From assembly GCA_965220365.1 (NCBI GenBank), contig OZ244823.1, positions 81,650 to 145,649 of the forward strand: a stretch of 64,000 bases of DNA. Reading direction: 5' to 3'. This DNA is from Rhodothermales bacterium (GTDB taxonomy: Bacteria > Bacteroidota > Rhodothermia > Rhodothermales > Bin80). The notes beneath the pieces are model-generated. The model was not told the DNA's origin. It did no database searches and saw nothing but the letters and a program-made list of their open reading frames with translations. The position numbers and the translations under genes are program-made. Shown piece after piece: positions 1,676-64,000 of this stretch. How positions within the stretch are numbered: position 1 is the stretch's first letter; each line of letters begins with the position of its first letter.

Positions 1676-7042
<5,367 letters not shown>

Positions 7043-21900: not shown

Positions 21901-23496
21901 CTGATCTGTGCTCCAATTTGATTTCGTGAACTCCAATTCCTCCTTGTCAAGAGTCACGGGGATCGCTTCGCCGGATCGCTGCGATAACCGCACACGCACT
22001 TTTCTTCCTAAAGGCGGCCCAGTCAACTGAATACTGAACGTCTCACTTGAACCCTCTTGAAATGGATCAATCACCGGTGGGCTCAACACCGGCTTGGGAC
22101 GTGCACTGTCCAGAATCGTCACCTCTACTGATTTCGGATTCCCTGCAACGACCGTAGATGGTAACCCACTTTCATCAATCGCCAACGTGAACAACTCATC
22201 GTCCCTGTCATTGGCATCTGCCTCAGTGGGAATCGTAAGCGTTCCATTCGCGCTTGTAAGATTCCGGGCCCCGGGAATCGTGATGGTTGGCAACGGACCG
22301 TAGTCGCCGACTTCCGCGGAACCCCCAGGAAGGACTGTTAGCGGAACGATCACATCTGTCGCCAGATCTTCCGAAATCGCCGCCGTGATTGTAACTGATC
22401 CACCCTCGTCTACAGGGTTTGGAGATGCCGACAATGTGACCTTCGGTCTATCATTATCCTTGAAGTGAAGCTCTACATAACCTGTCCTCCGAACTGTACC
22501 TCCCAGAACTTCTACATCAATGTGCAGCGTACCGTCGGTGTCGATTTTGTTGTTGTCCGCATGGGACACCGTGACCACCTGATCTGTGCTCCAATTTGAT
22601 TTCGTGAACTCCAATTCCTCCTTGTCAAGAGTCACGGGGATCGCTTCGCCGGATCGCTGCGATAACCGCACACGCACTTTTCTTCCTAAAGGCGGCCCAG
22701 TCAACTGGATACTGAACGTCTCACTTGAACCCTCTTGAAATGGATCAATCACCGGTGGGCTCAACACCGGCTTGGGACGTGCATTATCCAGAATCGTGAC
22801 ATCTACCCATTTCTGATGCCCTGGAACCACCGTAAGCGACAGTCTTGTCTCATCAATCTCCACCGTAAATTCCTCATCATCATTGTCATTGGCATCTGTT
22901 TCAACGGGAATCGTAAGCGTTCCATTCGCGCTTGTACTATTCCCGGGAATCGTGATGGTTGGCAACGGACCATAGTCACTTGGTTCTGCACTGCCCCCAG
23001 CCCTAACCACCAAAGGAACCACTACATCCGTAGACAAAGACTGCGAAATCGTCGCCGTGATCTTGACCGATCCCCCCTCATCCACTATGGTTGGAGACCC
23101 TGCCAATGTGACGGTCACGATATCATCTGGAAACAATCCCGGAATCGTTGCCCTCCACCCGGAGAACCCTTCTGTCACCGGATTCAATACCTGCTTTGAT
23201 ATCCCTGTCAGCGTATCATGACTCGTAGTCTGTGAACTTCCCGAAACACCGAAATAATATAGCCGCTTGCTCTTCTCAACTCCTAGCAGTCCACGGACTG
23301 CTAGGTTATACCTGTCTTGTGCAAACGCAACTCTCTGTGGAGTGGAGAGACTGAAGGAGGTTGTAACTGCGAGGTCTGTGCTAGGCTCAGAGACTATTTG
23401 AACACCAATTTTGCCAAATTCGGTGGATACACTGCCAACTTGGCAAACAATTATTAATGCGATCATATACATATCTCGTCTCGCATGTAAGGCCAA
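9970..23496 (-). CDS. Giant (4,508-aa ORF) Calx-beta-repeat adhesin-like protein with a C-terminal autotransporter (type Va-like) beta-barrel
   Basis: I count 31 modules carrying the D-[DE]-[ET]-F Calx-beta hallmark (e.g. GDYGSLASITIAANALEGTGTITTVRDTDSDDETFTVAL), including two canonical Calx-beta units near the C-terminus. Five modules of a second type are also present (LxFTxxNWxxxQxVT). A linker helix is followed by about 330 aa of alternating-pattern barrel (WGRGAF...GADYRW...ends QGMLRY). The ORF opens at TTG 23496; ATGs at 23472 and 23466 (MYMIALIIVCQVGSV) are more plausible starts. Confidence 0.85.
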   Translation of the reverse strand: MALHARRDMYMIALIIVCQVGSVSTEFGKIGVQIVSEPSTDLAVTTSFSLSTPQRVAFAQDRYNLAVRGLLGVEKSKRLYYFGVSGSSQTTSHDTLTGISKQVLNPVTEGFSGWRATIPGLFPDDIVTVTLAGSPTIVDEGGSVKITATISQSLSTDVVVPLVVRAGGSAEPSDYGPLPTITIPGNSTSANGTLTIPVETDANDNDDEEFTVEIDETRLSLTVVPGHQKWVDVTILDNARPKPVLSPPVIDPFQEGSSETFSIQLTGPPLGRKVRVRLSQRSGEAIPVTLDKEELEFTKSNWSTDQVVTVSHADNNKIDTDGTLHIDVEVLGGTVRRTGYVELHFKDNDRPKVTLSASPNPVDEGGSVTITAAISEDLATDVIVPLTVLPGGSAEVGDYGPLPTITIPGARNLTSANGTLTIPTEADANDRDDELFTLAIDESGLPSTVVAGNPKSVEVTILDSARPKPVLSPPVIDPFQEGSSETFSIQLTGPPLGRKVRVRLSQRSGEAIPVTLDKEELEFTKSNWSTDQVVTVSHADNNKIDTDGTLHIDVEVLGGTVRRTGYVELHFKDNDRPKVTLSASPNPVDEGEQVTITATISEDPVNDVEISFKIIAGTAESSDYGSISGGFITIRGAGNATSGRFILSTLEDNAEQDDETFMVVLGRLPQGVAAGDPSEVEVTIIDDDKVTVNLSASPNPVNEGGSVTVTATISEDPASDVVIPLILTAGAAEAGDYGALPDITIPGTGSATTGMGTIVIPQESDVTDWEDETFTVAIDESGLPSTVVAVDPKSVLVTIIDDDKPTVHLSASPNPVSEGQSVTVTVMLSEDPASDVVIPLTLTAGTAEAGDYGTLSTITIPGAGSVMTGTGTIMIPQESDVTDWEDETFMVAINESGLPSTVVAVAPKSVLVTITDDDKPTIRLSASPNPVSEGQSVKVTVTLSEDPASDVVIPLILTAGTAEAGDYGALSDITIPGTGSATTGMGMIVIPQESDVTDWEDETFTVMIDESNLPATVVIGNPKSALITITDDDKPTITLSASPNSVEEGQSVTVTATISEDPASDVVIPLILTAGTAEAGDYGALSSITIPGNGSVKTGTGTIMVPQESDVTDWEDETFTVAIDESGLPSTVVAVDPKSVLVTIIDDDKPTITLTAFPNPVLEGTGSGVVITVTTSKDLVTDMIIPLTLTAGTAEVGDYGILPSITILGGVLSGTGTIMIPQESDVNDKEDETFTVVLNESSLPSTVVAGNPKSALITITDDEKPTIVLYASPNAVPEGSELSLSVALVPPPSSPFDTEVQVPVMFISGTAQPQDYGSPPQRVIITIPTKGYSGSKDFFIPEDADSGDETFTVLIDEHTIDPRVRVGDMILQEVAITDKPAVSLSATTSVGEGDDLEVTVMLVGTPLPRGERIPLTLIPVTAEQEDYGNLRSISVPLLPGSGVARGTIQTYPDTDSDDDTFTLEIDASSLPSTVVAGAPTSVLVTISEKPTITLSANPNPVDEGDAVTVTARLSGALPAAVTIPLTYRPGAVDPAETGDYGSLASITIAANALTGTGTITTVKDADSDDETFTVALGSLPSEVVAGTPSSVLVTIREKPAVSLSANPNPVDEGSSVTVTATLSQALPAAVTIPLTLTPGTAEKGDYGGLASITIAANSLEGTGTITTVRDTDFDDETFTVALGSLPSEVAAGSPSSELVTITDLDTPTVSLSASPNPVDEGKAVTVTARLSRALPAAVTIPLTLTPGTAEKGDYGSLASITIAANALEGTGTITTVRDTDSDDETFTVALGSLPSEVAAGSPSSELVTITDLDTPTVSLSASPNPVDEGKAVTVTARLSSALPAAVTIPLTLTPGTAEKGDYGSLASITIAANSLEGTGTITTVRDTDFDDETFTVALGSLPSEVAAGSPSSELVTITDLDTPTVSLSASPNPVKEGSSVTVTATLSSALSTSMTIPLTLTPGTAEKGDYGSLASITIAANSLEGTGTITTVRDTDFDDETFTVALGDLPSEVVEGSPSSEEVEITDLDTPPVTPAVHLSATTPVDEGSSVTVTATLSSALPAAVTIPLTLTPGTAEKGDYGSLASITIAANALEGTGTITTVRDTDFDDETFTVALGSLPSGVAAGAPSSVEVTITDLDTPTVSLSANPNPVDEGKAVTVTARLSRALPAAVTIPLTLTPGTAEKGDYGSLASITIAANALEGTGTITTVRDTDSDDETFTVALGSLPSGVAAGTPSSVEVTITDLDTPTVSLFASPNPVDEGKAVTVTATLSRALPTAAVIPLTLTPGTAEAGDYGSLASITIAANALEGTGTITTVKDTDSDDETFTVALGSLPSGVAAGAPSSVEVTITDLDTPTVSLFASPNPVDEGKAVTVTATLSRALPTAAVIPLTLTPGTAEAGDYGSLASITIAANAEAGTGTITTVRDTDFDDETFTVALGDLPSEVVEGTPSSVLVTIREKPAVHLSANPNPVDEGSSVTVTATLSGALPTSVTIPLTQTPGTAEKGDYGGLASITIAANSLEGTGTITTVRDTDSDDETFTVALGDLPSEVVAGTPSSELVTITDLDTPTVSLSASPNPVKEGSSVTVTATLSSALSTSMTIPLTLTPGTAEKGDYGSLASITIAANSLEGTGTITTVRDTDFDDETFTVALGSLPSEVAAGSPSSELVTITDLDTPTVSLSASPNPVKEGSSVTVTATLSSALSTSMTIPLTLTPGTAEKGDYGSLASITIAANSLEGTGTITTVRDTDFDDETFTVALGDLPSEVVEGSPSSEEVEITDLDTPPVTPAVHLSATTPVNEGSSVTVTATLSQALPAAVTIPLTYRPGAVDPAETGDYGSLASITIAANALTGTGTITTVKDADSDDETFTVALGSLPSEVVAGTPSSVLVTIREKPAVSLSANPNPVDEGSSVTVTATLSQALPAAVTIPLTLTPGTAEKGDYGGLASITIAANSLEGTGTITTVRDTDFDDETFTVALGDLPSEVAAGSPSSELVTIRDTPTVSLSASPNPVKEGSSVTVTATLSSALSTSMTIPLTLTPGTAEKGDYGSLASITIAANSLTGTGTITTVKDADSDDETFTVALGDLPSEVVAGTPSSVLVTIRDTPTVSLSASPNPVDEGEDVTVTARLSRALPTAAVIPLTLTPGTAEAGDYGSLASITIAANSLEGTGTITTVKDADSDNETFTVALGDLPSEVAAGTPSSVGVEITDLDTPAVILPNVSLSASPNPVGEGSSVTVTATLSSALPAAVTIPLTYRPGAVDPAEPNDYVPVSEITIISGSGSGTAVVRTTPDNISEGGERFVVALGTLPADVEAGHPSEVEITIIDDDDPPPVEVTLSVDPEVVDEGDPVTVRVTLANPLETAVTIPLAYTPYTSEPGDYIELKQVTVAGEETEGTGQIVTIADTDTQDERFIVSLGDLDPAVLEPGLESSHWVTIRDRVPPEVVRVDLFASTNPVAEGEAVTVTVKLSEELPAAVTIPLVLTPGSADAQDYHAAAPMQVRIEREETSGTYVIRTTPDEIDEEDETFTVRVGALPEGMVAGDSLDITIEDDDAVGIEASPSISLLEGGTEEYRFSLASEPLGAVTVTMDWPRGTDLTVSPITRIFTPSDWNEPQQVTLTADEDDDISPDRVEVTLRATGADYTGEVYVLQVTIIDKDTPGIVAPHAVRIEEETDSEFGVHLSAKPSGTVTVTVSGFAGELTASPTRLSFTTTNWETPQTVTLTAGHDDDVVDDSETLTLTADGGGYAGIEHRVTVTVEDNDEAEIVAPAEVTMAEGTQSALEVRLSAEPSGTVTIALTGHAGTQLTLDRASLTFTTTNWKTSQTVTLTAAEDDNDEEDQVRLLLTASGGGYNGVSHTTQVTITDKGPVTISIWSQQGSENAGRLQLPIELSRATDQVVTVQYASSDDTAEAGLDYTASRGVVIFDPGATRGVVEIAIIDDELPEDDETFRVTLSNARNATIARGTGTGTILDDDQSAAALRVEDARVLEEEAEVRFRVLLSQPQREMVSAQYRTRDGTARAGEDYQASSGVVTLAPGTTEAMIAVPLLKGGLDWGQETFTLHLSSSEHARIEKAVGVATIQESTTVSERVLEAYAARFVRTSSVQVVEALGDRFRSAADGAACTALERAEMAQLWYSRWDPSPGELLAGCRMSESMLLPGGSLSVWGRGAFRQFNGQQPLTLRGEVTTAMLGADYRWRGGWLAGVLLAHSRGDGSFEVENESGDITSALTGIYPYASYTRAGWEVWLSGGAGRGQAEVSELDAEMTTRFGAMGMRGTLASGGSARLRYHGDLLVTGAEIEEHAITAEVVRVRVGLEASAQITKGIRPYVEANVRQDGGSAETGTGLELGGGVRFASPAWRLRGEVRTQGLVMHTADGFTEWGFSGSLQVGNRSEGLTMSLRPSWGRAQGMSMYRQQTILDAVPIGAGRQRTDLELGYGIPWKEGTARSVMGVTQLPGGRMYRLGGQLRPWERLSVSIFGLAHRRNAAPGDIGVNVQGMLRY
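13830..19030 (-). repeat. About 16 head-to-tail copies of a 324-bp (108-aa) coding repeat with higher-order identical blocks
   Basis: Antisense ORFs in the track recur with a 324-nt period (16337/16661; 16949/17273; 17930/18254/18578). Identical 100-111-aa antisense ORFs occur at 14675 vs 18578 and at 15112 vs 17383. Confidence 0.9.
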
Positions 23497-38064: not shown

Positions 38065-39186
38065 TCAATAGCCCAAGGCCCCCCGAACCAGCATCCCCAT
38101 CGCAAACCCGGTGTAATTACCCATTGCATACCCAAGAAGTCCCACAGCTACTCCAGGCAATACCCGATCTGCTGCTCCCCGGGCCGTGGCAAGTGCCATT
38201 GCGGAGGCGGGTCCACCCACGTTTGCCTGTGACGCAATCGCAAGTGTGGTCGCATCCAACCGAAATAATGCTCCAAGCCCAAATACACAAACTCCGTGTA
38301 GAACGACCGTCCCAACTGCAAAATATAACACCCCAGGGCCGATCACGATAATGTTCTTCACGACAGACTGTGCTCCATTCGTGGCAAGAAACAACAGCAA
38401 CAAGTAATATCCCCAGAGGCCTGCACCTGAGAGTTGGCGGATATAAGGCAGCTGCCCAACTGCAAGTGCGATTGTGGTGAGCCACAAGACCTCAGGAATG
38501 CCGGGCACAAGAGCTCCCAAATGCTTTGCAAGCCATACCGCGCCAAGTGCAATGATCACCAGCAGTGCTGCATCCTGTAATCGAACCGGTGTGCTCTTAT
38601 AGAGTGATCCAATCAGTCCATCCTGCTCCCTTGACTGCTGCACCGACTGCCTGCGACCGAAGAATAACGGAGCTACCAGACAAGCCGCCATCCACAAAGC
38701 TGTGATCAGTACATCCGCTGCAATGGCGGCGGAAAACATCTCGCTGCTGGTGTCAAACGCACGCCCCAGTGCTGCAAAATTCACTCCTCCTCCGTTGTAC
38801 GTACCCATGAATTGCCCTGCCAATTTCCAAGTCTCCGGTCCAATGAGAGGAGCTAGAACGAGTGCAGAAATGAATGCACCCGCAGCCGTGCCAATGGCAC
38901 CCAACCCAAATGCAAGCAGCATGGGCCCGCCGGCACTGCGAATCGTGCTGATATTTACACTCAGTAAAATGAGCACAATCCCCAGACTGATGCCTGGATC
39001 AATAAGCACGTCGTAGGCCTTGTTCTGTGCTGGAATCAGCCCCACATTGGACAGTACCATTGCCAGCAGGATCCCGACCAGCGCGGCACTCAGTGCTTTG
39101 AAAAGCGCAAAGCGGGTTTCCAGAAATACCGCAACCCACACGACAATTGCCAAAATCAAAAAGACCGAGAGGGGATGCGTAATCAT
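38065..39186 (-). CDS. DUF819-family polytopic membrane protein
   Basis: 373 aa, highly hydrophobic. The N-terminus (FLETRFALFKALSAALVGILLAMVLSNVGLIP) resembles DUF819. Confidence 0.5.
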   Translation of the reverse strand: MITHPLSVFLILAIVVWVAVFLETRFALFKALSAALVGILLAMVLSNVGLIPAQNKAYDVLIDPGISLGIVLILLSVNISTIRSAGGPMLLAFGLGAIGTAAGAFISALVLAPLIGPETWKLAGQFMGTYNGGGVNFAALGRAFDTSSEMFSAAIAADVLITALWMAACLVAPLFFGRRQSVQQSREQDGLIGSLYKSTPVRLQDAALLVIIALGAVWLAKHLGALVPGIPEVLWLTTIALAVGQLPYIRQLSGAGLWGYYLLLLFLATNGAQSVVKNIIVIGPGVLYFAVGTVVLHGVCVFGLGALFRLDATTLAIASQANVGGPASAMALATARGAADRVLPGVAVGLLGYAMGNYTGFAMGMLVRGALGY

Positions 39187-39498
39187 GCGGAGCTATGTTT
39201 ATGCCTTTTGAAAGAGCAATACTTCATTTGCCATCGAGCACCATATGGATCGTTCGGATTTCACAACTAGGCCCAACAATTTAATGATCCAGCGCCACTC
39301 TCTCACCAAGTCATGAAGATCATCCTGTCAACTCCACCAGCCGATCACCGGGGAGCCTGTGCAGAGTAACCTCCCCTGTAGATACCAGATATCCTCATTG
39401 ATCTCTTTTGCCCCCAATCGAAACGAATTATTCCAGATTGCATTTGAACGGATCTGAACCACTAGGTCTTTTCCCCTCTAATCGAGAGACACGGTTTT

Positions 39499-53110: not shown

Positions 53111-54463
53111 TTATTCAAATAATGGGCGACTCGGATTCAATTCACCAGTATAATAGCGGATCAGGCGTTTGCGCACGAAGATGGTATAGCGCGCAGCCAC
53201 CGCATCCTGAGAGGCCTGTACAAAATCGGATTGTGCCTGTGTGAGCTCAACCAAGGTTGCTGCCCCGACATTGTAGCGCTCGCGGGTCGCTTCCAATGCC
53301 TGCTCACGGAATACTAATTGCCTTTGAGTTACTTCAAGTTCTTTTTGTGCTGTCACGTAGTCTAAATACGCTTGGCGCACTTCAACCCCGATCTGCTGCT
53401 GAGTGGCTTCAACATTGATCTTGGCATTTTCATGGACGACTCGGGCCCGCTGAACCTGTGAGCGCGTCCGGAGACGATTAAAGATCGGGAAACTCAGGGA
53501 AAGTGAGACGGATTCTGATCGGTTGTTCTCCAACTGTTCTCCAAAATCAACACTTTCAATTCCACTGTTGAAGCTTGTACCGGTGTTGGCTGAGAGGCTC
53601 AGTTGCGGCATCATACTACTTCGGGCTACCCGCAACCCTTGCTCTGCTGCATCTACGGCAACTTCCTGTGAGCGTAAATCTCCACGTTGCAGTTGTGCAC
53701 GCTGATAGAGATCTCGCAGATCATACTCTTCTGGTACCAGTAGTTCATCCGACAAGTCTGGAACTACAAATTCGTAACTGCCCATGGGATCCAACCGCAA
53801 AACCTGAAGCAAATTTGCTTCAGATATCTGGGCCAACTGCTCAGTCTGCAATATCGCGAGCTCTGCAGATTCCACTGCTGCCTGTTGCTGATACAGGTCT
53901 GATACTGGACGTGTACCAACCCGTACGAATTCTTCGATCTGGGCCAGAAGCTGCTGTGCAGCAGCCAAATTTTCTTCCTGTACTGTGATCTGCTCGGAAG
54001 CCTGGATATATGCAAGGAATTGGCTGGCAACCTGAAAAACCACCAGTTGACGCTGACGCTCAAGGGCCAAGTCAGCAGAAGTTACATTTAATCGGCTCTC
54101 CCGAAGGTTTGCCTGACTCTGAAACCCATCAAACAGGGTCAGAGACGTAGATGCACCCACGTTGAAGCGGGTATTCCTCGTAGTGCGAAGCTCTCCCACA
54201 TTCGTGTCAAACGACAACCCCCAATTGCTCCCTCCACCTGTACCTACATTAAAACTCGGCAAAAACGCCGCCCATGCAGACTGCACGCCAATCTCACTCA
54301 GCCGCACCTGATTGGCACTCTGCCGCAGTTGCGTGTTCTGATCCAAGGCAATTTGCACTGCCTCTTCAAAAGTGATGGTTTGTTGAGCTTTCGGAACGGA
54401 AACGAGGATCAAGGCGGTCAGGAGACTCACACAAAAACTGCGTAACAGGACTCGGATAGTCAT
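53111..54463 (-). CDS. TolC-family outer-membrane efflux protein
   Basis: 450 aa with a signal peptide and duplicated TolC repeat structure. It is directly abutted to the adaptor gene. Confidence 0.88.
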   Translation of the reverse strand: MTIRVLLRSFCVSLLTALILVSVPKAQQTITFEEAVQIALDQNTQLRQSANQVRLSEIGVQSAWAAFLPSFNVGTGGGSNWGLSFDTNVGELRTTRNTRFNVGASTSLTLFDGFQSQANLRESRLNVTSADLALERQRQLVVFQVASQFLAYIQASEQITVQEENLAAAQQLLAQIEEFVRVGTRPVSDLYQQQAAVESAELAILQTEQLAQISEANLLQVLRLDPMGSYEFVVPDLSDELLVPEEYDLRDLYQRAQLQRGDLRSQEVAVDAAEQGLRVARSSMMPQLSLSANTGTSFNSGIESVDFGEQLENNRSESVSLSLSFPIFNRLRTRSQVQRARVVHENAKINVEATQQQIGVEVRQAYLDYVTAQKELEVTQRQLVFREQALEATRERYNVGAATLVELTQAQSDFVQASQDAVAARYTIFVRKRLIRYYTGELNPSRPLFE

Positions 54464-54644
54464 GAGTGCGCTTAATTGGATGGATTCAAGAACGACAACT
54501 TTGTTTAAGGATAGAGTTAGCGCCGTGTCAGCAGCCTGTATGTACGAAGGCTTATCACAGTTGTTACATTTTAGGGCCTACGCAACACCAAACCCCTCTT
54601 GTATATAACTCTACAGTGGAGGCTTCTAACCTATCGAACGACCC

Positions 54645-55484
54645 TTACCTTGCGTGAAATTTCAGGTTTTCCCGGCGATGTTTTTGGCGAAGTTTCCGGA
54701 TTGCTTTTTCTTTGATTTGGCGTACCCGCTCCCTCGTTAGATCAAATCGGTGGCCAATTTCTTCCAGTGTCAGTGGATGTTCACGTCCAACTCCAAAAAA
54801 GAGTCGGGTGATTTCTGCCTCACGGGGGCAAAGACTACTGAGTGCGACTTCAATATCAATCTTCAGGGATTCTCCCTGGAGAGATTCATCGGGAGGAGTA
54901 ACCTCGTCACTGGGTAGAATATCCAGAAGACTGTTTTCATCCTCATCGTTAAAGGGGGCATCCATCGATAGATGCCGACTCGTCCGCTGCATTGCATTGC
55001 GGACCTTTTCTATATCAATCTGTAGATCAGCCGACAGTTCTTCCAGATTCGGATCCCGTTCATGCTGTTGCGAAAGCCGGGCACTGCTCTTGCGAATTTT
55101 GCTGATCGTGCCAATCTGATTCAGGGGCAGACGTACGACCCGGCCCTGTTCTGCCAGAGCCTGAAGGATTGACTGGCGAATCCACCATACGGCATAGGAG
55201 ATGAACTTGAACCCGCGTGTTTCATCAAAGCGTTTGGCCGCTTTGATAAGGCCATAGTTCCCTTCATTGATCAAATCAGTGAGGTGCAGACCCTGTCCCT
55301 GAAATTTTTTCGCTACCGAAACAACGAAGCGGAGATTGGCACGGGTCAGCTTCAGGAGCGCTTCCTCGTCACCTTGTTTGATCCGCCGGGCTAACTCCGC
55401 CTCTTCCGCGGGAGTTACAAGGTCAATCTGACCAATTTCCTTCAGATATTGGTCCAGCATTCGCTGGCGACGTGGGACGTACAT
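54645..55484 (-). CDS. rpoD: Primary RNA polymerase sigma factor (short Bacteroidetes-type SigA/RpoD)
   Basis: 279 aa. Region 2 is [12 protein letters not shown]...[18 protein letters not shown]...[13 protein letters not shown]. Region 3 is [16 protein letters not shown]. Region 4 is [29 protein letters not shown]. Confidence 0.93.
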
Positions 55485-55551
55485 GTGGGTGCGACTCCGG
55501 TAAGTTTGTCTCAGATTTTACAACTAGAACTGAATCAGGAAAAGGTTTACA

Positions 55552-55582
55552 CAAATAAGCCTAACAATGATCCAAGCCAAAA
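55552..55582 (-). promoter_or_regulatory. Candidate Bacteroidetes-type promoter for rpoD (TTTTG-N19-TTATTTG)
   Basis: On the minus strand it reads cTTTTGgcttggatcattgttaggcTTATTTGtg, about 68 nt upstream of the ATG. It only approximates the -33 TTTG / -7 TAnnTTTG consensus. The block is copied in both inter-paralogue spacers. Confidence 0.25.
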
Positions 55583-55591
55583 GATTTACAC

Positions 55592-57916
55592 CTATATGTC
55601 TACGGGTTGCTTCTTCAAAATGAACACCCCTTCCCTGCGACTTGTCACAACAATAATTCCACTCTCAAAGTATGGGAAACTGCTCCAGGTTCCATTGAAT
55701 CCGGCCTCATCCGTCCCATACGGGGTGGTATCAAAGTGTCCAATCTCAACAGGATCCTCCGGCGAGGATACATCGATAATACGCAGACCACTCGCATTAT
55801 TGGTCTGGTACATCAGATTGCCATGTATATACAGATTGTGATCCGTCGCTGAGGTGGGTCCATAGAACTCACGAATCATGATCGGATCACTTAGATCCCT
55901 CACATCCCAAACCAGTGTGCGTGTTTTATGAACCTTGCCCTGGATTTCATCAAGCTCATCATTCTGGAAAAAATAGGAATGATCCTCTGTGAGCCAACCC
56001 TGATGCACGTACGCAGCATCAGGATAGGAGCCGGTTCCAATTGCAACCGGGTTTTCTTTGTCGGTCACATCCGATATACTGATTGCCGTTTCATTGGCAC
56101 CGAAGCAAATTTCACGTCCAGCGTATTCACTGTCTGGTCCATGGTAAATCATACACTGCGCATCATGGCTGTATCCGGTCTTGCGGCGTCCGGTTGTCTC
56201 GTCTGCAAAGCATCCGGCAAAAACAGGAGCCTGGGGTTCACGGATATCAATCATGTGCAACCCTCCGCCACAGGTTTCTCCTCCGGCGGAGGCTCCCACC
56301 GCAAAGGCAAACCCCGTCTCTTCATTAATGACAATATTATGAGCGCTGTGAATACGATCATAATGTGCCGTTGCTTTGAACTCCACTGGAGTATTGGTAA
56401 GTCCTCTAAGTTGCGTCAGGTCGAAGATCTGCATTCCATGCTCCCGGGCGCCATCGGCGACAATAAATGCGTGATCCTTATACACCTTGATATCCCGCCA
56501 GGTACTTCCTGGCGAGCCTTCTGTCCGGGGCAGGGTTCCCAGGTATCTGGGGCTTGATGGAGTACTCAAATCAACGAAAACCGTCCCCTCAAGATGGCCG
56601 ATCAAACCATACTCAATTCCGGTTTCGGGATCGGTCCATCCCCACACATCACTCAGGCGCACCCCACGATTCATCTCCATTTCTTCATTCGGAAGAAAGG
56701 AAACCAGGTCCACAAGCCCACAATCAAACCCTTCTGCCTGTCCACCATCACACAGGATGTCAGCTTTACGGGGCATGTGCTCATGAACATAAAAGAGTTC
56801 TTGGACCATCTCCCATACACCGCCATTGAATTCCAGTAGTTCAGCACTTCCTTCTCCATATGCAGCACTTGGGGATCCAACCGCCATTACGCTTCCGTCC
56901 ACGGCAACCGTAGATCCAAGTGAGAAGCCGATCCCTGGAACAGTGATATACTCAGGTTCTGAATCCTCATGTACGGTATAGACACGTAAATTTTCTTCTG
57001 CGTCACGAGGCCCAAACACGGGGAATCCAACAACGATCCGCAACGGATCCTGGATCTCAACCTGAAATCCAAAAAAGGACCCAGTGGCATCTTCTTCTGG
57101 AGTAAGAATTTTCACCTTTTTCCATCCTGAATTTTCCGTATTCTCTTGCTGCCAGACGACGACTGCACCTTTTCTTGAATTGTGTTGGGGGGCTCCGACC
57201 ACTGCGCGCTCCCCCCTCAGGTCCAAGGTCACTCCATACATGGATTCTGCACTCAGTTCCCCGCAAGGCAACGTTGCAGACAATCCCCACCCATCAGCTT
57301 GATACTCGTACAGGTACGCAGTACAAAGTCCGGGAGAGCCAATCAGGAGGCGTCCCTGATCCATCGAAAGTGCACTCCCATACATGGATGCAGATGACTC
57401 TCCGGGTTCTTCAAGAATCGTTCTTCTGCCCCACGTTCCCTCCGAGTCCTTCCGAAAGAGGTGGACCTGGCCAGCGGATCCGTCGGCCTGCGAGGCGCCT
57501 ATGGCAAGCCACCCGTCATCCAGCGCAAGAGCAGTACCAAACGTGCTGTTGTCCTCTGACTCCAGCCGATCCGTCTGCACAAAGTGGTCCGTCTCAGGAT
57601 TCAGTTCAAACACGTACACTGCGGATTGATCTGCAACCGCCAGTGTTCCGTCCCCATACCCGATTGTGTGGCCGAATCCATCCCCTACGTGGGCATCCCC
57701 GTGCAATGAGTTCTTCCAAACCCATTTCTGGTCGTCTCCCCGCACGTAGACATGAACCATCCCATGGGTTTCAAATCCACCCGACTCTGATATAAAGAGA
57801 TGGCCATCCCCGGCAGTAATTGCTCTACCAAACCGATCAGCCAGATCGGTGGGATTGGCCCAGGTCGGGGATACTGCGAAGAAAGCAAACAGGTATAAGG
57901 CAAGAGATTTGCGCAT
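55592..57916 (-). CDS. Secreted double-propeller protein, paralogue 1: FG-GAP-like repeats plus an LVIVD/choice-of-anchor-B domain
   Basis: Signal MRKSLALYLFAFFAVSPTWA. N-terminal half has repeated [LIV]A[VI]G[AS]P...G.[VA]Y[LV]F blades. C-terminal half has DVWGWTDPETGIEYGLIG, KDHAFIVADG, GLRIIDVSSPEDPVEIGHFDT. The ORF track start of 58009 runs into the spacer. Confidence 0.8.
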   Translation of the reverse strand: MRKSLALYLFAFFAVSPTWANPTDLADRFGRAITAGDGHLFISESGGFETHGMVHVYVRGDDQKWVWKNSLHGDAHVGDGFGHTIGYGDGTLAVADQSAVYVFELNPETDHFVQTDRLESEDNSTFGTALALDDGWLAIGASQADGSAGQVHLFRKDSEGTWGRRTILEEPGESSASMYGSALSMDQGRLLIGSPGLCTAYLYEYQADGWGLSATLPCGELSAESMYGVTLDLRGERAVVGAPQHNSRKGAVVVWQQENTENSGWKKVKILTPEEDATGSFFGFQVEIQDPLRIVVGFPVFGPRDAEENLRVYTVHEDSEPEYITVPGIGFSLGSTVAVDGSVMAVGSPSAAYGEGSAELLEFNGGVWEMVQELFYVHEHMPRKADILCDGGQAEGFDCGLVDLVSFLPNEEMEMNRGVRLSDVWGWTDPETGIEYGLIGHLEGTVFVDLSTPSSPRYLGTLPRTEGSPGSTWRDIKVYKDHAFIVADGAREHGMQIFDLTQLRGLTNTPVEFKATAHYDRIHSAHNIVINEETGFAFAVGASAGGETCGGGLHMIDIREPQAPVFAGCFADETTGRRKTGYSHDAQCMIYHGPDSEYAGREICFGANETAISISDVTDKENPVAIGTGSYPDAAYVHQGWLTEDHSYFFQNDELDEIQGKVHKTRTLVWDVRDLSDPIMIREFYGPTSATDHNLYIHGNLMYQTNNASGLRIIDVSSPEDPVEIGHFDTTPYGTDEAGFNGTWSSFPYFESGIIVVTSRREGVFILKKQPVDI

Positions 57917-57945
57917 TACTCTTGAATAAGTCATGGTTCGTTGAT

Positions 57946-58087
57946 GGATCCCGTTCATGCTGCTGCGAAAGCCGGGCACTACTCTTGCGAATTTTGCTGA
58001 TCGTGCCAATCTGATTCAGAGGGAGGCGTATGACCCGATCCTGCTCCGCCAAAACTCAAAGAATTGGGTGGCGACATGGGCCATACA
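57946..58087 (-). pseudogene. Fossil of rpoD internal coding sequence (sigma region 2.4-3.0), spacer 1
   Basis: Colinear with 55051-55191 at a constant offset of 2,895 nt. It encodes ..[35 protein letters not shown]. The shared antisense ORF tail [22 protein letters not shown] appears in ORFs 54712-55119 and 57820-58014. Confidence 0.9.
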
Positions 58088-58192
58088 GTGTGCCGGCTCC
58101 GGCGAATTTGTCTCAAATTTTACAGTCAAACCGAATTAGGAAGGGGTTTACACAAATAAGCCTAACAATGATCCAAGCCAAAAGATTTATCC

Positions 58193-60526
58193 CTAAATAT
58201 CTACGGGTTGCTTCTTCAAAATAAATACCCCTTCCCTGCGACTGGTCACGACGATAATTCCACTCTCAAAGTATGGATAGCTGCTCCAGGTTCCATTGAA
58301 TCCGGCATCATCTGCCCCATACGGGGTGGTGTCGAAGTATCCAATCTCAACAGGATCCTCTGGTGAGGATACATCAATGATCCGCAGGCCACTCTTATAA
58401 TTGGTCTGATACATCAGATCACCGTGTATATACAGATTATGATCCGACGCTGAAGTAGGTCCATAGAACTCACGTATCATGATCGGGTCACTTAGATCCC
58501 TCACATCCCAAACGAGAGTACGTGTCTTCTCAACCTTGTCATACATTTCATCAAGCTCATCATTCTGGAAAAAATAGGAATGATCTTCTGTGAGCCAACC
58601 CTGGTGTACATACACGGCATCAGGATAGGAGCCGGTTCCGATTGCGACTGGATTTTCCTTATCTGTCACATCCGATATACTTATCGCCGTTTCATTGGCA
58701 CCGAAGCAAATTTCACGTCCAACGTACTCGCTATCTGGTCCATGGTATATCACGCACTGCGCATCATGACTGTATCCGGTCTTGCGGCGTCCGGTCGTCT
58801 CGTCTGCAAAGCATCCGTTAAAAACAGGGGCCTGGGGCTCACGGATATCAATCATATGCAACCCTCCGCCACAGGTCTCTGCTCCCCCAGAAGCCCCCAC
58901 CACAAAAGCAAACCCCGTCTCTTCATTAATGACAATGTTATGAGCGCTGTGGATACGGTCATAATGTGCCGTTGCTTCGAACTCCACTGGAGTGTCGGGG
59001 AGTCCCCTGAGTTGTGTCAGGTCGAAGATCTGCATGCCATGCTCCCGGGCACCATCGGCGACAATAAATGCGTGATCCTTATACACCTTGATATCCCGCC
59101 AGATACTTGCCAAGGAGCCTTCTGTACGAGGCAGGGTTCCCAAGTACCTGGGATTCGATGGAGTACTCAAATCAAGAAAGACCGTCCCTTCAAGATGACC
59201 GATCAAACCATACTCAATTCCGGTTTCGGGATCGATCCATCCCCACACATCACTCAGGAGCACTCCGCGATCCATCTCCATTTCTTCATTCGGAAGAAAG
59301 GAAACCAGATCCACATGTCCACAATCAAACTCTTCTGCCCGTCCATCACCACACATGACATTAGCCCTACGTGGTATATACCTACGAATGTAAAAGAGTT
59401 CTTGGACCACTTCCCACGCACCATCATTGAATTCCAGCAGTTCAGTGCTTCCTTCTCCATAAGCAGCACTTGGGGATCCAACCGCCATTACGCTTCCATC
59501 CACGGCAACTACGGAGCCGGATGAAACAACGATTCCAAGAACTGTGACGTACGCAGATTCCGAATCTTCATCTTCCTGCACGGTATAGACACGTAAATTT
59601 TCTTCTGCGTCACTGTCCCGTCCACGTAGTCCTCCAGACGCGGGAAATCCAACAACGATCCGTAGAGGATCCTGAATCTCGACCTGTGAACCAAAACGAA
59701 ACCCAGAAGCATCTTCCTCTGGCGTAAGAATTTTTGCCTTTTTCCACCCGGAGTCTTCCGTATTCTCCCGCTGCCAGACAACAACTGCACCTTTTGTTGA
59801 ATTGTGTTGGGGAGCTCCGATCACCGCACGCTCCCCCTTTAGATCCAGATTCATTCCGTACATGGATTCTGCACTCAGTTGCCCACAGGGCAACGTTGCA
59901 GACAACGCCCACCCGTCGGCTTGATATTCGTACAGATATGCAGCACAAAGTCCGGGCGAGCCAATCAGAAGGCGTCCCTGGTCCATCGAAAGTGCAATCC
60001 CATACATGGATGCAGCTGACTCTCCGGGTTCTTCAAGAATCGCCCTTCTGATCCACGTTCCTTTCGAGCTCTTCCGAAAAAGGTGGACATGACCAGTAGA
60101 CCCATTGGACTGTGAGGTGCCTACGGCAATCCATCCATCATCCAATGCAAGAGCGCTGCCAAACGTGCTCATGTACTTTGACTCCAGCCGCCCCGTCTGC
60201 ACAAAACGATCCGTCTCAGGATCCAGCTCAAACACGTACACTTTAGATCGTTCTGAAACCGCCAGTATCCCGTCTCTATATTCGATTGTATCGCCGTATC
60301 CACCTCCTACATGTAATGAGTCTTTCCAAACCCATTTCTGGTCGTCTCCGCGCACATAGACATGAACTATTCCGTGGGCTTCAAACCCGGCCGACTCTGA
60401 TATAAAGAGATAGCCATCCCCAGTAGTAATCGCTCGACCGAACCCATCAGCCAGACCGGTTTGGTTTGCCGAAGCCAGGGATACTGCGAGGAAAGCAAAC
60501 AGGCATGAGGCGAGAGACCTGCACAT
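58193..60526 (-). CDS. Secreted double-propeller protein, paralogue 2
   Basis: Signal MCRSLASCLFAFLAVSLASA, same architecture. The ORF track start of 60745 is an in-frame run through the rpoD fossil. Confidence 0.8.
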   Translation of the reverse strand: MCRSLASCLFAFLAVSLASANQTGLADGFGRAITTGDGYLFISESAGFEAHGIVHVYVRGDDQKWVWKDSLHVGGGYGDTIEYRDGILAVSERSKVYVFELDPETDRFVQTGRLESKYMSTFGSALALDDGWIAVGTSQSNGSTGHVHLFRKSSKGTWIRRAILEEPGESAASMYGIALSMDQGRLLIGSPGLCAAYLYEYQADGWALSATLPCGQLSAESMYGMNLDLKGERAVIGAPQHNSTKGAVVVWQRENTEDSGWKKAKILTPEEDASGFRFGSQVEIQDPLRIVVGFPASGGLRGRDSDAEENLRVYTVQEDEDSESAYVTVLGIVVSSGSVVAVDGSVMAVGSPSAAYGEGSTELLEFNDGAWEVVQELFYIRRYIPRRANVMCGDGRAEEFDCGHVDLVSFLPNEEMEMDRGVLLSDVWGWIDPETGIEYGLIGHLEGTVFLDLSTPSNPRYLGTLPRTEGSLASIWRDIKVYKDHAFIVADGAREHGMQIFDLTQLRGLPDTPVEFEATAHYDRIHSAHNIVINEETGFAFVVGASGGAETCGGGLHMIDIREPQAPVFNGCFADETTGRRKTGYSHDAQCVIYHGPDSEYVGREICFGANETAISISDVTDKENPVAIGTGSYPDAVYVHQGWLTEDHSYFFQNDELDEMYDKVEKTRTLVWDVRDLSDPIMIREFYGPTSASDHNLYIHGDLMYQTNYKSGLRIIDVSSPEDPVEIGYFDTTPYGADDAGFNGTWSSYPYFESGIIVVTSRREGVFILKKQPVDI

Positions 60527-60555
60527 TACTGTCGAGTAAGCCATGGTTCGTTCGT

Positions 60556-60676
60556 GGATCCTGTTCATGCTGTTGCGAATTTTGCTGATCGTGCCAATCT
60601 GATTCAGAGGCAGACGTACGACCCGATCCTGCTCCGCCAAAACTAAAAGAATTGGGTAGCGACATGGGCCATACAG
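60556..60676 (-). pseudogene. Fossil of rpoD internal coding sequence, spacer 2 (carries a 22-nt deletion between ttgcga repeats)
   Basis: ggatcctgttcatgctgttgcga|attttgctgatcgtgccaatctgattcagaggcagacgtacgacccg aligns to rpoD 55051 onward. Confidence 0.9.
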
Positions 60677-60786
60677 TGTGCGCGACCCCGACGAATTTAT
60701 CTCGGATTTTACAGCTAAAACCGAATTAGGAAGGGATTTACACAAATAAATAAGTCTAACAATGATTCAAGCCGAAAGATTTATGC

Positions 60787-63111
60787 CTATATATCTACGG
60801 ATTGCTTCTTCAAAATGAACACACCTTCCCTGCGACTGGTCACGACAATAATTCCACTCTCAAAATATGGGTAGCTACCCGAAGCTCCATTGAGGCCAGC
60901 ATCATCCGCCCCATACGGGGTGGTGTCGAAGTGTCCAATCTCAACGGGATCCTCTGGCAAGGATACATCAATGATGCGCAAGCCACTCTCATGATTGGTC
61001 TGGTACATCAGATCACCGTGGATATACAGATTGTGATCCGTCGCTGAGGTGGGTCCATAGAACTCACGAATCATGATCGGATCACTTAGATCCCTCACAT
61101 CCCAAATCAGGGTGCGTGTCTTCTCAACCTTGCCCTGGATTTCATCATGTTCATCATTCTGGAAAAAATAGGAATGATCTTCTGTGAGCCAACCTTGGTG
61201 CACGTATGCAGCATCAGGATAAGAACCAGTTCCGATTGCAACCGGGTTTTCTTTGTCCGTCACATCTGATATACTGATCGCTGTTTGATTGGCACCAAAG
61301 CAAATTTCACGTCCAGCGTATTCGCTATCCGGTCCATGGTAAATCACACACTGCGCATCATGAGTGTATCCGGTCTTGCGTCGTCCGGTTGACTCGTCTG
61401 CAAAGCACCCGGCAAAAACAGGGGCTTGGGGTTCACGGATATCAATCATGTGCAACCCTCCGCCACAGGTCTCTCCGCCCGCGGAAGTTCCCACCGCAAA
61501 GGCATACCCCGTCTCTTCATTAATGACAATATTGTGAGCACTGTGGATCTGGTCGTACTGTGCGGTTACTTCAAACTCGACCGGAGTATCGACGAGCCCT
61601 CTGAGCTGCGTCAGGTCAAAGATCTGCATTCCATGCTCCCAGGCACCATCGGAAACAATAAATGCGTGATCCTTATACACCTTGATATCCCGCCAGATAC
61701 TTGCTGGGGAGCCTTCCGTACGAGGCAGGGTTCCCAAATACCTGGGATTTGATGGAGTACTCAAATCAAGGAAGACCGTGCCTTCCAGGTGACCGATCAA
61801 CCCGTATTCAATTCCGGTTTCAGGATCGGTCCATCCCCATAGATCACTCAGGACCACTCCGCGATCCATCTCCATTTCTTCATTCGGCAGAAATGAAACC
61901 AAGTCCACATGCCTACAATCAAACTCTTCTGCCCGTCCATCATCACACAGGATGTCAGCCTTACGGGGTATATCCCTACGAACGTAAAAGAGTTCTTGGA
62001 CCATCTCCCACGCACCATCATTGAATTCCAGCAGTTCAGCACTTCCTTCTCCATATGCAGTCTCTGGGGATCCAACTGCTATTACACTTCCATCCACGGC
62101 AGCCGTGGATTCAAATGAGAAGGCGACTCCCGGAACGGTGGTGTACTCAGGTTCCGAATCCTCATCTTCCTGCACGGTATAGACACGTAAATTTTCTTCT
62201 GTGTTACTGCCCCATCCAAACACGGGGAACCCAGCAACGATGATCCGCAGTGGATCCTGAATCTCGACCTGCGAACCAAAACGAGACCCGGGGGCATCTT
62301 CCTCTGGAGCAAGAATTTTCACCTTTTTCCACCCGGAGTCTTCCGTATTCTCCTGCTGCCAGACAACGACTGCACCTTTTGTTGAATTGTGTTGGGGAGC
62401 TCCGATCACCGCACGCTCCCCCTTTAGATCCAGATTCATTCCGTACATGGATTCTGCACTCAGTTGCCCACAGGGCAACGTTGCAGACAACGCCCACCCG
62501 TCGGCTTGATATTCGTACAGATATGCAGCACAAAGTCCGGGCGAGCCAATCAGAAGGCGTCCCTGGTCCATCGAAAGTGCAATCCCATACATGGATGCAG
62601 CTGACTCTCCGGGTTCTTCAAGAATCGCCCTTCTGATCCACGTTCCTTTCGAGCTCTTCCGAAAAAGGTGGACATGACCAGTAGACCCATTGGACTGTGA
62701 GGTGCCTACGGCAATCCATCCATCATCCAATGCAAGAGCACTGCCAAACGTGCTCATGTACTTTGACTCCAGCCGCCCCGTCTGCACAAAACGATCCGTC
62801 TCAGGATCCAGCTCAAACACGTACACTTTAGATCGTTCTGAAACCGCCAGTATCCCGTCTCCATATTCGATTTTATCCCTGTATCCACCTCCTACATGCA
62901 ATGAATCTTTCCAAACCCATTTCTGGTCGTCTCCCCGCACATAGACGTGAATCATCTCGTGGGCTTCAAACCTGTCCGACCCTGATATAAAGAGGTAGCC
63001 ATCCCCAGTAGTAATCGCTCGACCGAACCCATCAGCCAGACCGGTTTGGTTTGCCCAAGCCAGGGATACTGCGAGGAAAGCAAACAGGCATGAGGCGAGA
63101 GACCTGCACAT
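60787..63111 (-). CDS. Secreted double-propeller protein, paralogue 3
   Basis: 774 aa with signal MCRSLASCLFAFLAVSLAWA. The ATG lies 25 nt downstream of the tRNA-Val 3' end. Confidence 0.85.
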   Translation of the reverse strand: MCRSLASCLFAFLAVSLAWANQTGLADGFGRAITTGDGYLFISGSDRFEAHEMIHVYVRGDDQKWVWKDSLHVGGGYRDKIEYGDGILAVSERSKVYVFELDPETDRFVQTGRLESKYMSTFGSALALDDGWIAVGTSQSNGSTGHVHLFRKSSKGTWIRRAILEEPGESAASMYGIALSMDQGRLLIGSPGLCAAYLYEYQADGWALSATLPCGQLSAESMYGMNLDLKGERAVIGAPQHNSTKGAVVVWQQENTEDSGWKKVKILAPEEDAPGSRFGSQVEIQDPLRIIVAGFPVFGWGSNTEENLRVYTVQEDEDSEPEYTTVPGVAFSFESTAAVDGSVIAVGSPETAYGEGSAELLEFNDGAWEMVQELFYVRRDIPRKADILCDDGRAEEFDCRHVDLVSFLPNEEMEMDRGVVLSDLWGWTDPETGIEYGLIGHLEGTVFLDLSTPSNPRYLGTLPRTEGSPASIWRDIKVYKDHAFIVSDGAWEHGMQIFDLTQLRGLVDTPVEFEVTAQYDQIHSAHNIVINEETGYAFAVGTSAGGETCGGGLHMIDIREPQAPVFAGCFADESTGRRKTGYTHDAQCVIYHGPDSEYAGREICFGANQTAISISDVTDKENPVAIGTGSYPDAAYVHQGWLTEDHSYFFQNDEHDEIQGKVEKTRTLIWDVRDLSDPIMIREFYGPTSATDHNLYIHGDLMYQTNHESGLRIIDVSLPEDPVEIGHFDTTPYGADDAGLNGASGSYPYFESGIIVVTSRREGVFILKKQSVDI

Positions 63112-63136
63112 TACTGTTGAATAAATCGTGATTCGC

Positions 63137-63213
63137 TGGTGGGCCCTACGGGATTCGAACCTGTGACCTCTCGCGTGTGAGGCGAGCGCTCTAAACCACT
63201 GAGCTAAGAGCCC
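63137..63213 (-). tRNA. tRNA-Val (anticodon CAC), CCA-encoded
   Basis: Folded by hand. Acceptor GGGCTCT/AGGGCCC, D-stem GCTC/GAGC, anticodon stem CTCGC/GCGAG with loop CT-CAC-AC, T-arm ACAGG-TTCGAAT-CCCGT (one A.C mismatch), discriminator A + CCA. 77 nt. Confidence 0.85.
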
Positions 63214-63662
63214 TTAGCCGGAGAGATCTCCGTCGACGACCCGCCGTTAACGCGCTTAGCCTGCTTGGGGTCCTGAATCTGAGTCTCCGCAATCGGGCCT
63301 GCCGCACTACGCAACCCGGACATAGGGGCGGGAATATACTGAGAAGTCCCTGCTACGAGTGCTGCTGCCAAGGCAATTGCCGCCGCCGTTCCAACCAGAA
63401 TACTGGTATGTGGTGGGCGCACCGGGGTCGCGAATGGAAGGCACTGGGATAAACGTGCGCGAACCCTCTTCCGCAAATCTTTCGGTGCCCGAAAGCTATA
63501 CTCGCTCAGTAGCCGCCGGGTACCACGCAAGTGCTTGACTTTCTTTGCAAGTCTGGAATCACACTCCAAGCACTCCTCAAACACGGCGCGGACCGAGCAA
63601 TCCATTGTGCCATCTACGTACTCACACAGGAACTCGTCCATCCAGGAGACTCGGTTCAACAT
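63204..63662 (-). CDS. Putative anti-sigma factor (zf-HC2-like N-terminus, single TM)
   Basis: EFLCEYVDGTMD...FEECLECDSRLAKKVKHL resembles an anti-sigma Zn-finger. TM segment ILVGTAAAIALAAALVAG. The last 10 nt overlap the tRNA 5' end. Confidence 0.45.
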   Translation of the reverse strand: MLNRVSWMDEFLCEYVDGTMDCSVRAVFEECLECDSRLAKKVKHLRGTRRLLSEYSFRAPKDLRKRVRARLSQCLPFATPVRPPHTSILVGTAAAIALAAALVAGTSQYIPAPMSGLRSAAGPIAETQIQDPKQAKRVNGGSSTEISPAKGS

Positions 63663-63826
63663 GATGCGCGGAAGTAGCGATGTAGCATACGATCAGGTGT
63701 TCTAAGTCAGTGAGATGTGAGCCTGCATAATAGGGACATAATGAAAGCTGAGCCCGAATGTTTCCAAGTTCTCCGTGTGATTACTAGGATAATTTGCGGA
63801 ATGTTCACAAAATCTCCACAAAATCC

Positions 63827-64000
63827 TCAACGCGCGTGATGCTGTAAAGGTTCTGCCAGTAAGCGTGTAATGAAAAGTGTCATGATTGAACGGGGGCTAC
63901 GCTTGGAAAATCCTTTGATTTCGCTATCGGTACTCAAAAGCAGTTGGATTGCCCGCTTGACTTCTGGAAGTGGCCAGCTACTGATGGCCTCGTGATACCG
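63827..64000 (-). CDS. 3' end (57 codons) of a gene running off the window; DNA polymerase III delta (HolA)-like C-terminus (tentative)
   Basis: Open frame from 64000 to the TGA at 63827-63829. ..SWPLPEVKRAIQLLLSTDSEIKGFSKRSPRSIMTLFITRLLA resembles the HolA domain III tail. Confidence 0.35.
   Translation of the reverse strand, partial: RYHEAISSWPLPEVKRAIQLLLSTDSEIKGFSKRSPRSIMTLFITRLLAEPLQHHAR

Follow-up and report, generated by a model that had tools for sequence, protein, structure and literature searches.

The two spacers that separate three tandem paralogues upstream of rpoD in the stretch of DNA analysed here (64 kb in full, referred to below as the window) each carry, in the sense orientation, a copy of the rpoD upstream region followed by a leader derived from rpoD itself; BLAST and alignment bear out this earlier observation for the DNA in front of both paralogue 1 (P1) and paralogue 2 (P2). 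At the level of sequence, the origin of the spacers as duplication scars is fully explained. A retained regulatory or promoter function of the spacer copies appears plausible, and we assign a probability of roughly 55% to the reading that combines the duplication history, as seen in the sequence, with selective retention of an rpoD control region that would still be working. The original prediction of promoter capture is partly supported. Its geometry is found at both spacers; the captures are not independent events, as both derive from one ancestral junction that is also found in relatives with two copies of the paralogue.

In the direction of transcription (minus strand), the locus comprises an anti-sigma-like ORF, tRNA-Val, P3, spacer 2, P2, spacer 1, P1, an intergenic region, rpoD and an outer-membrane efflux gene. 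The features considered below are:

63204-63662, minus strand: anti-sigma-like ORF, 152 aa (weak anti-sigma match, E=9e-8, below cut-off)
63137..63213, minus strand: tRNA-Val(CAC) (ARAGORN and Rfam)
60787..63111, minus strand: P3, the tRNA-proximal paralogue, 774 aa, an FG-GAP and choice-of-anchor B secreted protein (ORF, Pfam)
60527..60786, minus strand: spacer 2, between P3 and P2
58193..60526, minus strand: P2, the middle paralogue, 777 aa (ORF, Pfam)
57917..58192, minus strand: spacer 1, between P2 and P1
55592..57916, minus strand: P1, the rpoD-proximal paralogue, 774 aa (Pfam, NCBIfam)
55485..55591, minus strand: P1-rpoD intergenic region, 107 nt, from which the spacer copies derive
54645..55484, minus strand: rpoD, RpoD/SigA-type sigma factor gene, 279 aa (Pfam, NCBIfam)

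All three P proteins contain FG-GAP repeats and a C-terminal choice-of-anchor B domain (TIGR04312, E=8e-128), with putative signal peptides, judged by eye, at their N-termini. The sigma protein possesses all four Pfam regions (1.2, 2, 3 and 4), and its best NCBIfam matches are the RpoD models, under whose cut-offs it scores because the protein is short; its cluster mates bear the NCBI name "RNA polymerase sigma factor RpoD/SigA". It is 60-71% identical to proteins from Bacteroidota-type genomes, and the short form (279 aa, no region 1.1) is presumably typical of the Bacteroidota/Rhodothermota group. In a GTDB scan with the sigma protein, the nearest match showed 71% identity and a P gene was found beside rpoD in 0 of 80 loci. 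Elsewhere in the window, what looks like a giant adhesin is encoded by a single 4,500-aa ORF (9970-23472, minus strand), whose product combines Calx-beta, LapA and PKD repeats with an autotransporter-like domain at its C-terminus.

Alignment to rpoD resolves each spacer (~270 bp) into four pieces. Directly after the P stop codon, the 107-nt P-rpoD intergenic region is present as a full-length copy; this is followed by rpoD nt 1-21, then by rpoD nt 313 to ~434, and finally by ~29 nt that match the 3' terminus of tRNA-Val (ACCA) and the 25-nt gap before P. The parts map as follows:

Spacer 1, minus strand: intergenic copy ~58089-58192; rpoD relic 57946..58088; tRNA-end/gap piece 57917-57945
Spacer 2, minus strand: intergenic copy ~60677-60786; rpoD relic ~60556-60676; tRNA-end/gap piece 60527-60555
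TCGCCAG repeats in rpoD: 55464-55470 and 55173-55179

The intergenic copies are 82-84% identical to the real 107-nt region, including a 45-nt exact block. The identity of 58153-58183 with 55552-55582 reported previously falls within this exact match (55544-55588 = 58145-58189), and the degenerate form of the block in spacer 2 is likewise found, with TTTCG and a 4-nt TTAT insertion that gives TTATTTATTTG. BLAST aligns rpoD nt 306-434 with 57946-58074 at 86% identity; the corresponding match in spacer 2 carries an additional 22-nt deletion. The leader had been described as a sense fragment of rpoD of about 140 nt, which is accurate as to orientation and inaccurate as to contiguity, the fragment consisting of 21 and ~122 nt with an internal deletion of 291 nt. 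The missing 291 nt are bounded in rpoD by two TCGCCAG repeats (nt 15-21 and 306-312), and their loss is a microhomology deletion between these 7-nt repeats.

At the junction, rpoD nt ~434 (...GAACGGGATCC; window position 55051) is joined to the tRNA-Val 3' end ACCA and the gap. In the relatives, the tRNA end and gap read ACCAACGAATCATGACTT, nearly identical to the spacer tail ACCAACGAACCATGACTTATTC. The upstream breakpoint of the ancestral duplication is placed at the last 4 nt of tRNA-Val (ACCA). The three tandem units are spaced by 2.59-2.62 kb. rpoD and its relic in spacer 1 lie 2,895 bp apart, a distance equal to 4 + 25 + 2325 + 107 + 434, the length of the original unit.

An identical sigma protein is encoded on at least 10 metagenome contigs, eight of which carry the three-copy array with both spacers; the three-copy contigs form three clades, with a 4-fold-site divergence of ~0.17-0.18 between them. 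Distant relatives were reached through homologues of P. A single P copy lies directly upstream of rpoD in seven genomes (L091, L094, L097 and L120-L123), and four loci contain two copies (L092/L093, L095, L096 and L124). The P gene is preceded by the same tRNA-Val in relatives with one, two and three copies, as confirmed for the former in the three single-copy genomes checked (L091, L094 and L097).

The two-copy spacers are all built like those of the window, with the same intergenic copy, 291-nt deletion and junction; since the deletion and the junction are common to all two- and three-copy spacers, these arrays go back to one ancestral duplication. Spacers 1 and 2 additionally share derived states that are missing from the two-copy spacers, namely a destroyed ATG and AAACCCC, and therefore the third copy arose later, through duplication of one copy together with its spacer. 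The timing is consistent with this order: the 4-fold divergence of P1 from P2/P3 (0.26-0.30) is slightly above that between the window and the two-copy species (0.23-0.26) and far below that between the window and the single-copy species (0.50-0.61).

The course of events shown by these comparisons begins with an ancestor in which the order was tRNA-Val, P, rpoD. A single tandem duplication of 2,895 bp, spanning the final 4 nt of tRNA-Val through approximately nt 434 of rpoD, gave rise to tRNA-Val, Pa, a composite of intergenic copy, truncated rpoD and tRNA-end/gap copy, then Pb, the intergenic region and rpoD. The truncated rpoD subsequently lost 291 nt between the TCGCCAG repeats, and the resulting junction was passed on to all two-copy and three-copy relatives. 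Finally, in the lineage of the window, the tRNA-proximal copy and its spacer were duplicated again to yield spacers 1 and 2.

Tandem repeats are prone to mis-assembly, and a repeat mis-join might be thought to have made the array or its chimeric spacers; nothing specific to this locus points that way. The probability of such an artefact is negligible given that the same three-copy array with both spacers is present in eight contigs from separate samples and studies, one of them long-read, that orthologous two-copy arrays exist in other species, and that the copies differ by 10-20% and are easily resolved.

Recombination has left further marks on the array. When the window is compared with L081 and L083 across 54645-63213, the divergence between clades per 100 nt swings from 0-2% to 20-37%, and L083 agrees with the window over P3 and the 3' portion of P2 and with clade C elsewhere; this mosaic is the product of extensive homologous recombination. 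Conservation of spacer 1 between clades was considered as a sign of constraint and rejected, because the divergence profile is mosaic and the adjacent coding DNA is equally low in divergence. The rpoD genes of L124 and L092 are 99.9% identical and their spacers (3808-4112 and 12362-12666, respectively) clearly different, which points to recombination or mosaicism, or to fast turnover of spacers within a species.

The rpoD relic in the spacers is a non-coding, decaying pseudogene fragment. Its ATG is destroyed in the three-copy species; in L092, the frame opened by the ATG ends at a TAA after 10 codons; and clade C shows indels of +2 in spacer 1 and -1 in spacer 2. The 22-nt deletion of spacer 2 adds to these. 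Derived changes in the relics are distributed over codon positions 1, 2 and 3 as 18:11:23 (p=0.12 against a uniform distribution), compared with 5:1:45 in live rpoD. A protein-coding constraint on the relic was considered and is ruled out by the lost frame and ATG, the indels and the even distribution of changes over codon positions. The relic had previously been portrayed as a near-perfect fossil, and the figure given for spacer 1 (2 differences in 35 residues) is correct; the conservation is confined to a local patch and does not extend across the relic. Contrary to the earlier reading, the fossil is not conspicuously better conserved than the paralogues: DNA identity is 86% for the relic and 82-84% for the intergenic copy versus 83-89% for the paralogues. 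The relic as a whole evolves like non-coding DNA, with its frame lost. Several of the "synonymous" differences between rpoD and spacer 1 arose in the live gene, for example a GAA that is unique to the rpoD of the window.

The conserved patch covers rpoD nt 361-398, where the relics differ from the rpoD consensus at 1-4 of 38 positions in the three-copy species versus 5-8 of 38 in the two-copy species; the adjacent nt 313-360 show 11-15 differences in 48 positions in every relic (for spacer 1, patch against the adjacent upstream stretch, Fisher p=0.001). The patch was probably introduced by gene conversion over a short tract, with rpoD as the donor, in the common ancestor of the two spacers of the window. 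The same sharp contrast in the three-copy species might be taken to mean that the rpoD fragment has been maintained for a function, either as a micro-protein or as a cis-regulatory RNA element shared with the rpoD mRNA. Such maintenance is highly improbable, however, considering that the patch is decaying in the two-copy species, that the fragment has accumulated frame-breaking indels and a stop codon and lost its ATG, that its substitutions are spread evenly over codon positions, and that no excess RNA structure emerged on folding either the spacers (z = 0.09 for spacer 1 and 0.49 for spacer 2) or the intergenic region (z = 0.78); gene conversion from rpoD, which lies 2.6-5 kb away in direct orientation, is the simpler explanation.

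Both the ORF list and gene callers prolong P2 into the rpoD relic, to 823-850 aa (window 58193-60745), and the same over-extension occurs at L081 4807-7278 and its equivalents in L084-L086, because the indels leave the frame open. These ORFs running through spacer 2 into P2 are probably an annotation artefact; the extension would bury the signal peptide.

The original prediction highlighted TTTTG and TTATTTG as promoter hexamers; these are not conserved upstream of real rpoD genes, and the conserved part is instead formed by GGATCATT and GTGTAAAC. The bipartite element GGATCATT-N13/14-GTGTAAAC is invariant in 14 real rpoD intergenic regions (16/16 box positions), among them those of the seven single-copy genomes, in which neutral divergence is saturated. 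Smaller invariant islands are located nearer the start codon (TTTGA.AC, CCGGA and the ATG context). The element and its copies in the window are:

55545..55574, minus strand: original bipartite element, 16 core positions; box 1 55565-55574, box 2 55545-55552
58146..58175, minus strand: element in spacer 1, intact, TGGATCATTG-N12-GTGTAAAC; box 1 58166-58175, box 2 58146-58153
60736..60769, minus strand: element in spacer 2, degenerate; box 1 GAATCATT, box 2 GTGTAAAT, with a 4-nt insertion between them

Spacer 1 has 0 of 18 box changes compared with 19% outside the boxes. When spacer 1 and the two-copy spacers of L092, L095 and L096 are taken lineage by lineage, there are 0/18 box changes against 16-29% elsewhere (P=0.002-0.05), and the boxes of L124 are likewise intact. 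Across 16 spacers, 14 of 16 box columns are invariant versus 39 of 91 non-box columns (Fisher p=0.001), in a box-specific test that covers only 16-18 positions. Both variable box columns are contributed by spacer 2, which is mutated once in box 1 and, in the window strain, once in box 2. The inter-box sequence of the two-copy spacers differs from that of the real intergenic region (TTCGGCCTATCC versus TTAGGCTTATTT), so that the boxes do not owe their retention to conversion by the real copy. The 5'-UTR islands and the start codon, which are needed only for rpoD translation, have decayed in the spacers. Decay of the coding part combined with preservation of the boxes is the pattern that a retained promoter or operator would give. 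Retention in the spacers was not significant when all intergenic footprint columns were tested (p=0.16).

Given that the whole P gene was duplicated along with the intergenic region, any rpoD promoter within ~2.4 kb upstream was copied as well. The duplication would in this way have put the rpoD control region in sense orientation before the downstream copy. Selection would have preserved the core GGATCATT-N13/14-GTGTAAAC in spacer 1 and in the spacer of the two-copy species, and the core would now be degrading in spacer 2; from its preservation we infer that it probably still serves as a regulatory site or promoter. Transcription like that of rpoD would then reach P1, and P2 to a lesser degree, with the relic as an untranslated leader, besides any read-through from upstream.

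A different possibility, which we hold to be distinctly less probable, is that the intergenic copies are inert scars, that a single transcript starting upstream of tRNA-Val covers P3, P2, P1 and possibly rpoD, and that the boxes have been retained by chance or through a local mutational or recombinational effect. P3 does start 25 nt after tRNA-Val, as originally described. The ancestral P gene sits only these 25 nt from the tRNA, with the ORF abutting the tRNA on the other side, which makes it unlikely that the gap ever held a promoter dedicated to P. A scan of the spacers for sigma-70 promoters and terminators detected no sense-strand promoter and no intrinsic terminator, and neither spacer has a terminator-like hairpin on the sense strand. 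With no terminator between the genes, read-through from upstream is a possible and equally simple source of P1 and P2 mRNA, and it may coexist with transcription initiated in the spacers. The inert-scar explanation is further favoured by the roughly neutral divergence (16-29%) of the intergenic copy outside the boxes, the decay of the 5'-UTR footprints and the ATG, the mutated boxes of spacer 2, and the lack of significance of the overall footprint test. It does not readily account for boxes that are invariant in spacer 1 and in all four two-copy spacers, whose lineages have been largely independent of one another since the species diverged, while 43-57% of the other columns vary, and the divergent inter-box sequence excludes conversion from the real intergenic region as a way around this difficulty. 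As a separate observation, the anti-sigma-like ORF (63204-63662, minus strand) ends 10 nt inside tRNA-Val and the ORF-tRNA-P order is kept in all relatives, an arrangement that suggests a tRNA-mRNA co-transcript.

The Bacteroidetes-type sigma-A promoter consensus is TTTG at -33 and, about 19-21 nt further downstream, TAnnTTTG at -7, and the TTTTG-N19-TTATTTG of the window intergenic region resembles this geometry. Unlike in that promoter type, there is no exact TAnnTTTG in the intergenic region, which has cTTATTTG with no TA in register, and neither hexamer is conserved in the relatives. The TTTTG resembling the -33 element is seen in the window, L091 and L123 and missing from L094, L097 and L120-L122; both highlighted hexamers are replaced in the latter five, the position of TTATTTG being occupied by AGTGG in L094 and GATTG in L097. 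Other variants of the real intergenic region are TTATTCG in clade C and TTTAG in L092 and L095. The term Bacteroidetes-type sigma-A promoter occurs in PMC9723704 and PMC7366714. TAnnTTTG is rare in the window (only 16 instances in the whole 64 kb, both strands), and a search of its own upstream regions yielded no derivable promoter consensus; sigma-70-like promoters are found at or below the number expected from shuffled sequence. The boxes fit neither the sigma-70 nor the Bacteroidetes TAnnTTTG consensus. A literature search returned nothing relevant on Rhodothermus promoters or transcription start sites, and we know of no characterised promoters for the uncultured lineage of the window.

The boxes might also be functional without being a sense promoter, for example as an operator for a regulator of rpoD, as an antisense promoter, or as a processing or 3'-end signal of the upstream P transcript. 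This is unlikely, even though no known promoter consensus is matched in the sense orientation and each copy lies directly downstream of a P stop codon. The reverse reading of the boxes does resemble -35/-10 hexamers, and the 18-nt spacing of spacer 2 is flagged by the sigma-70 scan; for sigma-70, however, the N14 that separates them upstream of real rpoD and in spacer 1 is non-canonical. The intergenic region and spacers have no significant RNA structure (z = 0.1 to 0.8) and match no Rfam family, the only Rfam hit in 54000-64000 at E<=1 being the tRNA, and the position and orientation of the boxes fit a promoter or operator of the downstream gene. The plus-strand reading itself, TTTACA-N14-AATGAT at 55545-55574 and 58146-58175, and at 60737-60766 in spacer 2 with the 4-nt insertion that brings the spacing to 18 and makes it promoter-like to the sigma-70 scan, is probably a coincidence.

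Outside the rpoD locus, a scan of JGI metagenomes for the bipartite motif returned 22 loci, none of them encoding the sigma factor or P; these are chance matches. A bipartite-like arrangement with a different spacing, TGGATCATTA-N17-TTGTGAAAT, occurs once in the window at 39250-39300 (minus strand), upstream of the ORF at 38065-39186.

All three paralogues are under purifying selection. They are intact in all complete assemblies, and broken gene calls are limited to a low-coverage long-read contig (L088). The ratio of divergence at codon positions 1+2 to that at 4-fold sites is 0.16-0.18 for P1 orthologues versus 0.32-0.43 for P2/P3. P1 groups with the rpoD-proximal copy of the two-copy species, to which it is orthologous, and is closest to the single-copy orthologues. 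The conservative copy is thus P1, the one behind the captured region, and the tRNA-proximal copies, including P3, evolve faster. In the window's clade the tRNA-proximal copies exchange sequence: nucleotides 301-700 of P2 and P3 are 99-100% identical (~59827-60226 versus 62412-62811), compared with 79-92% in the remainder, which indicates a recent gene-conversion tract; in clade C (L081), the P2 and P3 proteins are only 83% identical in the N-terminal third.

Laboratory evolution has provided ample documentation of promoter capture by tandem duplication; to our knowledge, old and naturally fixed examples with a readable junction are few. The spacers are a natural case of this known route and represent no new kind of element. 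Instances cited in PMC11111574 are the rnk-citT capture of Cit+ E. coli and, from Anderson and Roth in 1978, the Salmonella his duplications. The structural hallmarks of rnk-citT-type capture are all present, namely a direct repeat, a novel junction, an upstream region in sense orientation and single-copy relatives. As in the rnk-citT and his cases, a head-to-tail duplication ends inside the downstream gene, the upstream region and a 5' fragment of that gene lie in sense orientation before the second copy, and the copies were joined by short or no homology and later amplified by recombination between them. Unlike those cases, the present array is natural, old (~0.26-0.30 substitutions per 4-fold site) and fixed in several uncultured Rhodothermaceae-like species; the donor is a putative housekeeping sigma gene, the captured copy stayed conservative, and promoter activity is a prediction.

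Silent horizontally transferred genes have also been activated experimentally by spontaneous tandem duplication and promoter capture (PMC6614815, PMC11111574). Those cases share with the present one illegitimate junctions at the level of microhomology and a unit that carries a neighbouring promoter; they differ in that expression was selected in the laboratory, whereas the gene duplicated here was presumably already expressed. Like gene relics at the junctions of segmental duplications, the 5' fragment of the boundary gene is decaying by substitutions, indels and a microhomology deletion, and it goes beyond typical junction relics in having a probable short gene-conversion patch from the live gene.

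The value of the locus lies in a history that can be read from the sequence, with both breakpoints, the microhomology deletion, the later rise in copy number and the probable conversion patch. Differential decay is visible, the regulatory boxes being kept and the coding relic lost, and species with one, two and three copies can be compared. The element GGATCATT-N13/14-GTGTAAAC upstream of rpoD is a concrete target for mapping of transcription start sites in an uncultured lineage. Tentatively, the copy of the rpoD element might have been kept by selection, tying a secreted beta-propeller protein to the regulation of the sigma gene, with P1 taking over the ancestral role and the other copies being freed to diverge; a bolder and less likely variant is that the rpoD-derived leader keeps a cis-acting element of the rpoD mRNA. 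If the former is true, regulatory rewiring by a duplication junction would have decided which duplicate stayed conserved.
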